From Octopus vulgaris (lineage: Eukaryota): a stretch of DNA of 64,000 nt. The notes under the pieces are model-generated. The model searched no databases, had not been told where the DNA came from, and saw nothing but the letters and a program-made list of their open reading frames with translations. The translations under genes were made by a program, and so were the position numbers. Numbering within the stretch: the first letter of the stretch is position 1; each line of letters starts with the position of its first letter. This document shows, in pieces, positions 3,081 through 34,759 of this stretch. The DNA lies in assembly GCA_951406725.2 (NCBI GenBank), contig OX597826.1, forward strand, positions 26,908,001 to 26,972,000, in the 5' to 3' direction.

Positions 3081-3868
3081 GACAGATAGAGAAAGAGAGC
3101 GATCGAGAGTGAGAGAGATCGAGAGATCGAGAGAGAGATCACTATTTATAGATATGTAGATAAGTAGTTACTTTTAAAATTCTAGTTCCTAAAATATAAT
3201 AGCTAAATCGCCCTCAAATCACACCTTTATATAGAGAGAAACAGGAAGCATCGGACCACTTGGATAATCAACAAAAGCCCAGATTATTTGTTGTTGTTAT
3301 TGTCGTTGATGTCGTTGACCTTGCATTCATTTTTGTCATTCAAGATTTTATTCTCGACATCGTCTGTCGTCGTTCTTGTTGCTGTTATCGCTGCAATATT
3401 TCCTTTCATCACTCATCACCGCTGTTGCTGTCGGTGTGGTCGCTGCTGCTGTTTCTATTGTTTTCCTTCCCCAGTGTTGTTGTAGTTATTGCTTCTTTTG
3501 TTACGTTTGTTGTTATTGTCCTGCCCAGTGTGGTTCCGCTTGCGATGCGGAAAAAATTATCATTGGTTGCTTCCAGCTCATTCCTGATCGACCAGATATG
3601 TTATCAAAGATGTTTCAGCCATAGAGAGTACACAATATTTTTTCCTTTTATTTCCATATGTTGCTTACTTTCCTAAGAGTTTCTATCTCCATTGAAACAT
3701 TAGAAAATGACATATTCGCAAGTATCGTCGCACATACATACATACATACATACATACATACAAAAATACCCTGTTCTTGATGTTAAAATTCTAATGACAG
3801 AGCCTTGGTTAGAAACCAGTTCGTTCTCTATTGGCAAGAAATCTTGAAATACATACATACATACATAT

Positions 3869-4260
3869 GTGGCTGTGTGGTAAGTAGCTTGCTAACCAAC
3901 CACATGGTTCGGGTTCAGTCCCACTGCGTGGCATCTTGGGCAAGTGTCTTCTGCTATAGCCCCGGGCCGACCAATGCCTTGTGAGTGGATTTGGTAGACG
4001 GAAACTGAAGGAAGCCTGTCGTATATATGTATATATATATATATATATGTGCATGTGTGTGTGTTTGTGTGTCTGTGTTTGTTCCCCTAGCATTGCTTGA
4101 CAACCGATGCTGGTGTGTTTACGTCCCCGTCACTTAGCGGTTCGGCAAAAGAGACCGATAGAATAAGTACTGGGCTTACAAAGAATAAGTCCCGGGGTCG
4201 AGTTGCTCGACTTAAGGCGATGCTCCAGCATGGCCGCAGACTGAAACAAGTAAAAGAGTA
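3869..4260 (+). mobile_element. tRNA-derived SINE family 1 (octopus OR/OK-like), near full length
   Basis: Head gtggctgtgtggtaag...gggttcagtccc (A/B-box-like), internal (TA)/(TG) tract, tail gactgaaacaagtaaaagagta; at least 12 related copies in the window. Confidence 0.85.
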
Positions 4261-4629
4261 TATATATACACACACACATTTATATTGTATTTCGGGACGG
4301 CCATTTTTTAAATTTTTGTCAAATAAACACACGCACATATATATTCGATCTTTTATTACTGTTCGTTTATTACTGTTCTTATTCTGACTCATGTCCATTT
4401 TCCATAAGTATTTCGTCACTTCGGACAATGGATATTAGTTAGAATAAGAACAGTAGTAAACGAGTGAATAACGAATATATAGTGTGTGTGTTTGTTTGGC
4501 ACAGAAAAAAAAATATCCATCCCGAAATACAACAATATCTGTTTCAACACCCGACTTCTCATCAAGAAGCTTGCAACACATATTCATAAACGTATATATA
4601 TGCTCACACACACATATACACACACCATG

Positions 4630-4776
4630 TGAATATAAGGGAAGGATACAGTGTAGGTGTAGACGATCTTTAATTCATAATCCAGGTTGGTACATAATGT
4701 ATATTGGTTCTGTACCAACCTGGATTATGAACTAAAGATCGGCTACACCTACAATGGTTCCTTCCCTTATGCTTCA
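4630..4776. repeat. Hairpin with about 65-bp arms and a 16-nt loop
   Basis: ataagggaagga..tgtaggtgtag.cgatcttta.ttcataatccaggttggtaca is mirrored by tgtaccaacctggattatgaa.taaagatcg.ctacacctaca..tccttcccttat. Confidence 0.85.
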
Positions 4777-5309
4777 TTTATTTATATATCATATATATAC
4801 GTATGAGATAAAAAAAAATGCAAACAGGATGGTATTAGTCTCCGTTGACGAAACTTTTATTATTTCATTAAATCGATAAAAATGGTTTAGTGGACATGCC
4901 ATAGAGAGTGAACAATATAATGTTTTTCGAAAACGGCTTCTTTCAGGAAAAAAATTATTGGAAGAGAAAGTGTTTTGCCAACTCTAAGAAGAATTGGCTG
5001 CCGATTTCTTTAGTCTATAGTGAGTGTCATTCAGTTTTCTAGTTTGCAGCAAAGATTATTACATTTCATGAGAAGAAAAGAAAAACGATTTGCAAGTCAT
5101 TTGTGGCTCTTCTGAAAGGCAATATTCTTTTATCCCTTAAGTTTCAGGGAATGTAAATACTGAAACACCGGTTGTCTAGCACAAACAGATACCCAACCAA
5201 CCAGCCAAAAACACACACATGCACAGAAACATAAATGTACATAAATGCACATAAACATAAATACAGGAATACGTACATACCTACGTACATGCATACATAC
5301 ATGCATACA

Positions 5310-5656
5310 TATGGGGAGGAGACTCCGTTCGATCATGAAGGACCATGGGATTGCACCTAGAAAGTTACCCTCCGAAGCCCAAGTCCAGGCAAATTTGTTC
5401 ATGGAAGGCCAACAGTCACCCATGCACACCAGCCTTCCCTCTCCACACCGCTGATGTTATCGAAGGGAAAGAGAAGGGGCCTATACAGCTTGGCACCAGT
5501 GACGTCGCAACTCATTTCTACAGTTGAGTGAACTGGAGCAACGTGAAATAAAGTGTCTTGCTCAAGAACACAGCACGCAGCCCGGTCCAGGAATCGGACT
5601 CACAACCTCACGATCGTGAGCTCGACGCTCTAACCACTGAGCCATGCACCTTCACA
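5310..5656 (-). mobile_element. tRNA-derived SINE (head B, tail Z)
   Basis: Minus strand starts tgtgaaggtgcatggctcagtggttagagcgtcg...gtccgattcc, then cttgagcaagacactttatttcacgttgctccagttcactca; the head is shared with 35265-35586. Confidence 0.8.
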
Positions 5657-5907
5657 ACATACATACATACACACACACAAACACACACACACGCACACAC
5701 AGACACACACAGACATACACACACTCACACACACATATATATAAGGAAATAAACGCAGGATAATGCTAATAATACACCATGAACAGGATAAACTACCCAT
5801 ATTTTACAGAAAAGTCTCTCGTGGCCGCTGACACATTTTTCAGCAAACTGTTTTATCCTGTTCTAAAGCAAAAGTTGCTTGTTTACTTTTATGGTAATTC
5901 AAATTTA

Positions 5908-5962
<55 letters not shown>

Positions 5963-5964
5963 TC

Positions 5965-6272
5965 CTTTCCCGAAATGCAATTCGTAAAAGTCTGCCATTT
6001 ACCGGATGTAATATTTGTAAAGTAACCCATGTGCGTCGTTGACGTTGGTCAGTTGGCTGCCCGGCTTTGACGATGTAGGGTCGTTTATTTATGATACGTC
6101 CAGACTTGCTGATGAATACAGAGGTATGAAATCACAGGTGATACAAGTCCATATTTTTTAAATGTCTTACTTTGAAAAATTGCATTCGGTTGGATTAGTA
6201 AAATTTTTGGTAGAAATGACTAATTTTGTCCCTCTTAGCGTGTGGCATGTATGTATAATAATGCCCTCTATA
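5965..6272 (+). mobile_element. Diverged partial copy of the 480-bp hammerhead repeat
   Basis: Colinear with 34386-34712 (gccatttaccggat, ttttttaaatgtctt, tttgtccctcttag, taataatgccctctata); flanked on both sides by (TA)n. Confidence 0.85.
6103..6149 (+). ncRNA. Type I hammerhead ribozyme motif
   Basis: GACUUG-CUGAUGA-AUAC agag GUAU-GAAA-UCAC ag GUGA-UA|CAAGUC: intact core and three helices; predicted cleavage after 6143. Confidence 0.85.
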
Positions 6273-6277
6273 TATAA

Positions 6278-6354
<77 letters not shown>

Positions 6355-19744: not shown

Positions 19745-19951
19745 GTGACCGCGTGTGTACCGTTGGCGATTTTTTTCCTCCGTCTTCCCTTCTCTGGATC
19801 TTTCTTTTTTCTATGTTTCTGACGAAGAGCTCCGCTCGAAACGTAAAATCCTCCTTGTTCCTTTCCTTCCTGAGCGTCAAGTAATACTATATTTGTGCCA
19901 CGTCCTCGCGTTGTTGTGTTTTCTCTTTGTGTTTTCATGTTTGGATTAACT
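19745..19951 (+). mobile_element. Short Penelope-like terminal-repeat remnant with a minimal hammerhead
   Basis: Flanked by (TA)n; contains CTGACGAAGAGCTCCGCTCGAAACGTA; related sequence (gctcgaaacgtaaaa...cttcctgagcgt...taatac) at 36975-37105 on the minus strand. Confidence 0.55.
19815..19849 (+). ncRNA. Minimal type I hammerhead motif (PLE-type)
   Basis: GUUU-CUGACGA-A-GAGC ucc GCUC-GAAA CG UA|AAAU; helix III reduced to palindromic ACGU; weak helix I. Confidence 0.65.
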
Positions 19952-33262: not shown

Positions 33263-33313
<51 letters not shown>

Positions 33314-33570
33314 TTTAACAATTAAGGATAACCTCTTAATAAGGGATCTTAACAAGAAATTATCGGGTAGTTAGCGTGAAAACCTCATAAAAGAAAAGAA
33401 TTCGAAAATAATTTTTTTCTCTTGAACAAATTAATTATATCTATATTGTATAGAGGGCATTATTACACATAAATGCCTCACACTAAGAGGGACAAAGTCA
33501 TTACTACCAAAATTATACTAATCATACCCAAATGCAGTTTTTCAAAGCAAGACATTTAAAAAATGAATTT

Positions 33571-33628
33571 AGTTCTGTATCACCGTGATTTCACATTCAA
33601 CTTACGTCTTATGATCATCAGCAGAACT
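33571..33628 (-). ncRNA. Type I hammerhead ribozyme, copy 1
   Basis: Reverse complement reads AGUUCUG-CUGAUGA-helix II-GAAA-UCAC g GUGA-UA|CAGAACU. Confidence 0.8.
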
Positions 33629-34050
33629 GATTCTGAACACATCATAAATAAACTACCAACCTTACGTAGCGAAGACGAACAGACAACTGCTCACTCCGGC
33701 CAAGCACATGGAATGTTTATAAATCATATATCCGGTAAATGGCGGGCTTTTTACGAACTGCATGTCGGGTAATAAAAAGTATTTCGGAATAAGTTTAACA
33801 ATTAAGGATAACCTCTTAATAAGGGATCTTAACAAGAAATTATCGGGTAGTTAGCGTGAAAACCTCATAAAAGAAAAGAATTCGAAAATAATTTTTTTCT
33901 CTTGAACAAATTAATTATATCTATATTGTATAGAGGGCATTATTACACATAAATGCCTCACACTAAGAGGGACAAAGTCATTACTACCAAAATTATACTA
34001 ATCATACCCAAATGCAGTTTTTCAAAGCAAGACATTTAAAAAATGAATTT

Positions 34051-34108
34051 AGTTCTGTATCACCGTGATTTCACATTCAACTTACGTCTTATGATCATCA
34101 GCAGAACT
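34051..34108 (-). ncRNA. Type I hammerhead ribozyme, copy 2
   Basis: Identical to copy 1, 480 nt away on the same strand. Confidence 0.8.
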
Positions 34109-34529
34109 GATTCTGAACACATCATAAATAAACTACCAACCTTACGTAGCGAATGATTAGTATAATTTTGGTAGTAATGACTTTGTCCCTCTTAGTGTGA
34201 GGCATTTATGTGTAATAATGCCCTCTATACAATATAGATATAATTAATTTGTTCAAGAGAAAAAAATTATTTTCGAATTCTTTTCTTTTATGAGGTTTTC
34301 ACGCTAACTACCCGATAATTTCTTGTTAAGATCCCTTATTAAGAGGTTATCCTTAATTGTTAAACTTATTCCGAAATACTTTTTATTACCCGACATGCAG
34401 TTCGTAAAAAGCCCGCCATTTACCGGATATATGATTTATAAACATTCCATGTGCTTGGCCGGAGTGAGCAGTTGTCTGTTCGTCTTCGCTACGTAAGGTT
34501 GGTAGTTTATTTATGATGTGTTCAGAATC

Positions 34530-34587
34530 AGTTCTGCTGATGATCATAAGACGTAAGTTGAATGTGAAATCACGGTGATACAGAACT
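34530..34587 (+). ncRNA. Type I hammerhead ribozyme, copy 3 (inverted arm)
   Basis: agttctg ctgatga tcataagacgtaagttgaatgt gaaa tcacggtga ta cagaact; predicted cleavage after 34580. Confidence 0.8.
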
Positions 34588-34708
34588 AAATTCATTTTTT
34601 AAATGTCTTGCTTTGAAAAACTGCATTTGGGTATGATTAGTATAATTTTGGTAGTAATGACTTTGTCCCTCTTAGTGTGAGGCATTTATGTGTAATAATG
34701 CCCTCTAT

Positions 34709-34759
<51 letters not shown>

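Follow-up and report, generated by a model that had tools for sequence, protein, structure and literature searches.

A 5'-truncated hammerhead repeat in a TA microsatellite of Octopus vulgaris, from a retrozyme-like family with Penelope-like insertion marks

How does a short repeat carrying a hammerhead ribozyme motif come to lie inside a TA microsatellite, and is selection at work on its ribozyme? We addressed these questions at positions 5963-6279 of a 64,000-nucleotide stretch of the Octopus vulgaris genome (the window). We are fairly confident that this copy is a 5'-truncated non-LTR retrozyme, which a Penelope-like reverse transcriptase (RT) and endonuclease would have put into the TA run. 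The locus is composed as follows:

5906-5961, no strand: (TA)28 run, the target, at the 5' junction
5963-6279, plus strand: solo 5'-truncated arm of subfamily A (459-nt unit)
5970-5999, plus strand: 5' side of a long-range stem predicted to enclose the ribozyme, with its partner at about 6163-6190
6003-6101, plus strand: long hairpin predicted 5' of the ribozyme, in which pairs have changed on both sides between subfamilies
6103-6149, plus strand: type I hammerhead motif
6244-6272, plus strand: small predicted hairpin and CCCTCTAT motif (6264-6271), directly before 3' end site 1
6269-6321, no strand: (TA)n run at the 3' junction, followed by (AG)n at 6321-6351

The arm starts at about position 279 of the unit, passes the predicted cut and stops at site 1, where its last bases merge with the TA run. 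Left of the 5' TA run, a dispersed repeat (window 5400-5655) presumably resembles cephalopod SINE-like repeats.

Within 6103-6149, the core elements CUGANGA, GAAA and NUH occur in type I order. Helix I pairs GACTTG (6103-6108) with CAAGTC (6144-6149), CTGATGA lies at 6109-6115, helix II is ATACAGAGGTAT (6116-6127, that is ATAC-AGAG-GTAT), and GAAATCAC starts at 6128 with its GAAA at 6128-6131. Helix III (6131-6142) is near-palindromic, TCAC-AG-GTGA and then TA, with GTGATA from 6138; the AUA triplet occupies 6141-6143 and the predicted cut follows 6143. The preliminary description had put these motifs, as well as the GACUUG/CAAGUC and AUAC-agag-GUAU helices, exactly where we find them. As read from its letters, the stretch 6103-6149 has every part of a type I hammerhead motif, and cleavage is predicted for it. 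In Rfam, the hammerhead family was absent at the gathering score and only TA-repeat noise appeared at E up to 5, a match of this kind being a library match and not a defining structural feature of hammerheads. Folding predictions give the active fold of the 5963-6279 copy -5.8 kcal/mol versus -10.3 for a competing fold (4.5 apart), which would count against efficient cleavage by the monomer. The near-palindromic helix III is predicted to dimerise at -10 to -16 kcal/mol in 5/5 variants, much as in the dimer-type ribozymes described in PMC4209133.

A second insertion of the family, belonging to subfamily B, lies at 33-34 kb in the window:

33312-34153, minus strand: left arm, 480-nt unit, 1.75 units
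34153-34716, plus strand: right arm, with one hammerhead at 34527-34590

The left arm carries two hammerheads (33568-33631 and 34048-34111) and stops at site 2, where (TA)n (33277-33311) follows its 3' end; the right arm, head-to-head with it, ends at site 1, into (TA)n at 34712-34756. The insertion is a head-to-head pair with one arm at each site. That the two loci are homologous, as had been supposed, is established by the alignment of the 5963-6279 copy with 34386-34709 and with the minus-strand unit 33772-33449 (74.8% over 333 columns, E 9e-50). In fact, TAATAATGCCCTCTATA is found at both 6256 and 34693, and (TA)n follows after about 4-10 templated AT-rich bases. The preliminary description took this end to be the 3' terminus of the element. 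It is indeed common to the 5963-6279 copy and the copy ending at 34716, but it is only one of two termini: the minus-strand end at 33312 reads ...CCTTAATTGTTAAACTTA and then TA, a second 3' end within the window.

To size the family, the 2.8 Gb genome was searched with a 308-nt query from the window, which gave 1,978 first-look candidates; 40 of the 1,978 were scored and yielded 44 matches, among them 40 other full-length subfamily A copies, 94-99% identical. For subfamily B, 197 matches came from 40 of 1,684 candidates scored. Two exact hammerhead patterns differing at N7 matched 1,168 and 835 times in the genome (reversed controls 0 and 1), some of the 835 being more distant hammerhead families, and the site-1 motif just before the 3' end matched 2,908 times (control 0). 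From these pattern matches we estimate about 2,000 intact cores in the family. An old, decayed copy at 5963-6279 is ruled out by a nearest copy 99% identical to it; the alignments instead make it a young 5'-truncated member of a sister subfamily, A, and not a decayed member of subfamily B. Units in tandem measure 458-500 nt at a GC of 0.32-0.34, and arrays reach about 31 units, the longest belonging to subfamily C (G000:C1:64640504-64654969). Subfamily C (L062, L083, L127) also carries a duplication of 21 nt that repeats the hairpin before site 1. Helix I falls into at least eight variants or subfamilies, where the preliminary description had proposed at least two. No conserved long ORF was seen in the unit among the ORFs listed, and no RT plus GIY-YIG ORF lies inside the unit or between units.

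Is the ribozyme selected? All six helix I pairs stand in gapless register in 261/284 hammerhead occurrences, a count in which overlapping loci recur. We then considered an alignment of 25 distinct variants, hand-picked from pattern matches, which excludes most single-copy variants with broken pairs and includes some with mismatches. In this set 95.4% of 483 helix cells are paired versus 82.2 +/- 1.0% after shuffling (0/500 shuffles as high, in a control inflated by shared ancestry), and pairing drops to 21.5-40.5% when the partners are slid. Both sides have changed in 5/6 helix I pairs and 7/10 helix II pairs (12/16 in total), and one helix I pair takes five forms; helix III and the core are set by the search patterns and are uninformative in this test. 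RNAalifold, unaided, recovered helices I, II (proximal) and III, and a tree from sequence outside the ribozyme gave two well-supported groups with little resolution within them. Between A and B, helix I differs by three double changes, whose intermediates AGTCTTG/CAAGACT and GGCCTG/CAGGTC occur in other variants. The compensatory change claimed from the window is thus upheld across the 25 variants, 95% paired, and pairing is kept in other copies. For helix II the claim survives in part: proximal pairs do covary, but A and B differ chiefly in that A, like C, has lost the distal stem.

The core was assessed separately in a core-blind sample of 30 loci chosen by the end motif alone. The ribozyme is spanned in 15/30 of these loci (13 insertions), with CUGA(U/A)GA and GAAA in 13, CCGAUGA in one and a decayed core in one. 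With the decayed row removed, 10 core positions are invariant versus 45/134 of the other filled columns, and 0.336^10, about 2e-5, gives a rough measure that ignores relatedness. In contrast to this invariant core, N7, a free position in hammerheads, is U, A, C or G across variants, and H17 is A, C or U; N7 is also the sole subfamily B site with three common alleles. Within single subfamilies, shared core variants affect 0/10 and 0/9 sites versus 29/459 and 24/480, a comparison too weak to stand alone. Purifying selection on the catalytic core is supported by these patterns of variation. In stems outside the ribozyme, 16/39 predicted pairs covary, the long-range stem that encloses it (5970-5999 with about 6163-6190) shows some covariation, and 5/5 natural units fold as circles better than their shuffles (z -4.2 to -6.3, 20 shuffles each). 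Because covariation extends beyond the ribozyme, selection acts on the whole RNA fold in addition to the catalytic core. The selection on ribozyme function first proposed therefore stands for the core, as the core-blind sample indicates, but has to be widened to the whole fold and moved from this insertion to its source lineages, which is where selection acted: with a single ribozyme, 5963-6279 cannot free a unit alone.

What the insertions look like is best seen from their ends. We compiled 173 distinct arms from 164 loci, a non-random set made of best matches and, on contig C1, of first matches. Counted from the predicted cut, site 1 falls at about 122-149 nt and ends 77/173 arms, and site 2 falls at about 240-278 nt and ends 79/173; site 2 lies about 125 nt beyond site 1 and both are used about equally. 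Seven subfamily C arms ending at 152-156 nt were reassigned to site 1 by eye, because the 21-nt duplication shifts an identical motif. In all, 163/173 arms end at one of the two sites, 8 end elsewhere and 2 are unclassified. The TA-microsatellite target proposed earlier is confirmed by 159/163 arms at the two sites that continue into a TA run. Head-to-head insertions have one arm at each site in 40/47 cases (42/47 after the subfamily C reassignment); one of the 47 has both arms at site 2 and four have one arm elsewhere. Forty one-of-each against one same-site pair corresponds to a binomial p of 2e-11; earlier end classifiers, which left many arms unclassified, gave one-of-each counts of 29, 32 and 37 and same-site counts of 0, 1 and 1. 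Tabulating 3' junctions across copies, a check suggested with the first description, thus finds fixed ends, yet at two sites that are paired in inverted insertions. The motifs CTCTATA, CTTAATT, CTCAATT or CTCAATA after a C lie within 16 nt of the junction at 132/173 ends. By contrast, 5' ends are scattered over the unit: 30/163 fall within 40 nt of the predicted cut, where about 27 are expected, and for this lack of enrichment we gave up the notion of copies beginning where the RNA is cleaved. The marks of Penelope-type insertion are all here, namely 5' truncation, tandem and inverted arms, a tail at one end and a microsatellite target.

To explain these features, we propose that tandem source loci are transcribed and that hammerheads cut the transcript into units, probably aided by the pairing of two near-palindromic helices III. 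The cut units would be closed into circles. A Penelope enzyme would then cut both (TA)n strands and start copying the RNA at site 1 from one DNA end and at site 2 from the other; the two cDNAs would stop at variable points and be joined back to back, or one cDNA alone would be joined to the TA run, as for 5963-6279. Transcription, cleavage, circles and Penelope-type priming are all steps that we infer from the genomic copies. Because 5963-6279 reaches about 180 nt beyond the predicted cut on its upstream side, it must have been copied from a circle or an uncut multimer, and we consider the circle about twice as probable.

Might circles play no part at all? The same element and the same enzyme could work from a linear template, an uncut read-through transcript of the tandem arrays, the ribozyme being kept for another step such as RNA trimming or turnover. 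Copies do continue across the predicted cut, misfolding is predicted for the monomer ribozyme, and unprocessed RNA is the main substrate reported for PAc, the Poseidon element of Anolis (Frangieh et al. 2024, PMC11167929). The variation within insertions points both ways. Rare variants confined to some units of an insertion (45 in A, 41 in B) favour a linear template. Against it, 20 rare A variants are common to all overlapping units and 11 extend across both arms (none in B), and arrays that reach about 31 units are more uniform within than between insertions: divergence among units and opposite arms of an insertion is 0.8% in A and 0.33-0.38% in B, versus 2.6% and 1.8% between insertions. 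From these values each insertion would derive from one source lineage, though one molecule is unproven. Units are also predicted to fold as compact circles, and circles have been shown for coral, mussel and axolotl retrozymes (PMC7229834). On balance we find the linear template rather unlikely, and copying from circles remains our preferred reading.

How far does the family resemble known retrozymes? As in the animal non-LTR retrozymes described in PMC7229834 and in bioRxiv 10.64898/2026.07.22.740005, each unit has a type I hammerhead within low-GC, non-coding tandem repeats; thousands of copies, a strongly self-paired unit and Penelope-like elements in the same genome are likewise shared. The mussel retrozyme provides a mollusc case at 350-390 bp (Cervera and de la Pena 2020, PMC7229834). 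Our unit, at 459-500 nt, exceeds the 170-400 nt RNAs of that 2020 account and falls inside the 51-972 bp range of Li, Clavereau and Pollet 2026 (bioRxiv 10.64898/2026.07.22.740005). Unit-length linear and circular RNAs are a mark of animal retrozymes; the octopus family is described here from genome sequence. Counting against our reading, 1/9 Xenopus retrozyme dimers cleaved in vitro according to the 2026 preprint. In the literature searched we found no cephalopod retrozyme; the supplements of PMC7229834 and PMC8557442 may list cephalopod hammerheads or elements. By its sequence the family fits what defines an animal non-LTR retrozyme, with Penelope-like insertion marks added.

The likeness to Penelope-like elements lies in how copies are inserted. 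Tandem and inverted arrays, a tail often at one end only and a TA bias are among their marks as given by Craig et al. 2021 (PMC8557442), and our family shares with the Neptune/Nematis and Naiad elements of that paper 5' truncation, partial tandems, an inverted 5'-truncated copy, an optional one-end tail and a microsatellite target. The type I hammerhead and its palindromic helix III are shared with the Penelope-like elements of Cervera and de la Pena 2014 (PMC4209133). In contrast to Penelope-like elements, the family has no ORF, and its sequence is not homologous to that of the autonomous elements sampled; 4-5 pairs make up helix III versus 1-2 in the published Penelope-like descriptions, and the tail is about 125 nt versus 30-40 bp. 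This tail and the strict one-of-each rule depart from what is in print. Head-to-head arms, two fixed ends and a TA target were each absent from the accounts of animal retrozymes that we consulted, nor did we find anything in the literature on twin priming in Penelope-like elements.

Could the repeats instead be pLTRs, terminal repeats orphaned from an autonomous Penelope-like family that our search did not find and truncated before the ORF? The insertion anatomy is Penelope-like, and 24/57 Xenopus retrozyme families resemble known elements, mostly pLTRs (bioRxiv 10.64898/2026.07.22.740005). But our units stand in tandem with no ORF between them, the ribozyme is preceded by the rest of the unit in every subfamily examined, and our non-exhaustive sample of GIY-YIG loci holds no autonomous element with a homologous terminal repeat. 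The orphan origin is accordingly improbable. At 30 loci with the GIY-YIG domain PF01541, family sequence occurred at one only, upstream, as what looks like a separate insertion; 42 further loci and 16 loci ending in CCTYAATT showed no ORF joined to family sequence.

Which enzyme, then, might serve the retrozyme? A GIY-YIG frame beside a subfamily B array (L052/L091) pointed us to an element with a 775-aa frame that encodes RT plus GIY-YIG. The frame sits in a 4,270-bp tandem unit, at L122:1137-3464 and 3465-5406 (G000:C3:5853500-5863499); it has no start codon at its beginning, and open frames of 223 and 266 aa lie upstream. A search gave 17,769 candidates, and 150/150 scored were identical over the 134-aa endonuclease query. 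Its C-terminal endonuclease after CX4CX2C fits the Neptune/Nematis type of PMC8557442, and its sequence suggests a very young Neptune-type Penelope-like family. It bears a minimal hammerhead-like motif with CCGAAGA (CTGAAGA in an older sister, L162), which the covariance model did not match. The element inserts in (TA)n and ends about 141 and 171 nt after the predicted cut of its motif: 18 + 18 of 38 terminal ends fall at these two points, about 30 nt apart, and 7/7 classifiable head-to-head pairs have one of each, two of the seven having been joined across neighbouring loci by coordinates. A second Penelope-like family, of 781 aa (L165, L170), has two ends and a 3' region that is long and contains tandem repeats; a canonical hammerhead was not found there by pattern. 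As a homologous partner the 775-aa element was rejected: its 3' region scores 43 and 39 against units A and B, within the range of shuffles (maxima 49 and 50), and it meets the B array at an atypical tail-to-tail junction (L091:7179-7210), where its 3' region joins the B array inside its hammerhead with a short junction duplication. Since neither the 775-aa nor the 781-aa family has homology to the unit, the partner is deduced from its footprint alone. In a sister of the 775-aa element (L186) the tail contains CCCTCTATATACAAT, which resembles the site-1 motif of the retrozyme family, a short and AT-rich match that makes a weak partner lead.

That the family is a satellite spread by DNA-level recombination, with an unselected hammerhead-like motif present by chance or as a relic, has the tandem arrays in its favour but is highly improbable and largely refuted by dispersal over many contigs, by 3' ends that are fixed and 5' ends that vary, by a core that stays invariant while N7 takes four bases, and by helices that covary.

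Why should one arm end at each site? In vitro, PAc starts reverse transcription at two sites downstream of its hammerhead, cuts and extends both strands of an AT-rich target, has a protein predicted to be a dimer, and inserts with its ribozyme dispensable (PMC11167929). The start sites of PAc are reported not to differ between the two strands in vitro, whereas one site per arm is found in 42/47 head-to-head insertions here, and an AC-rich loop takes the place of the CCT(C/T)(A/T)AT that here precedes sites about 125 nt apart (PMC11167929). We tentatively suggest, as a possibility that we rate below even, that a Penelope-type enzyme dimer binds a single circular ribozyme RNA and begins to copy it from two non-equivalent sites at once, each serving one of the DNA ends left by cutting the TA target. 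The sites would be recognised through CCU(C/U)(A/U)AU in a conserved fold and not through fixed spacing. The two ends are spaced about 125 nt apart in the retrozyme, about 95 nt in another hammerhead family and about 30 nt in the autonomous element. If this is true, the genome would preserve in the one-of-each rule the trace of asymmetric twin priming, and retrozyme families that are unrelated would have arrived independently at one end motif, hijacking one enzyme.

The retrozyme class itself is known. This family bears on how animal retrozymes are copied, and also on how Penelope-like elements make tandem and inverted insertions with a tail at one end. Its natural covariation speaks for a selected hammerhead, and it has a strict end rule in common with an intact, very young autonomous element of the same genome. 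With covariation and a shared end rule in hand, both questions come within reach of tests on a single small RNA and a single protein that can be purified.

Other hammerhead motifs occur nearby and in the wider genome. In the window, CTGANGA...GAAAC motifs are also present at 19819-19850 (plus strand) and 61754-61720 (minus strand); they are unrelated to the retrozyme family, and the covariance model built from that family did not match them. The type I hammerheads at loci L219-L222 are more distant: their flanks are unrelated, but they have the ATCAC..GTGAT helix III in common with the family. At L231-L245, several other repeat families end in CCCTYAATT and (TA)n with no BLAST similarity to the retrozyme family, and some of them carry their own hammerhead motifs. 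One of these families (L233, L235, L236) has two ends about 95 nt apart, with one of each in 3/3 inverted insertions.
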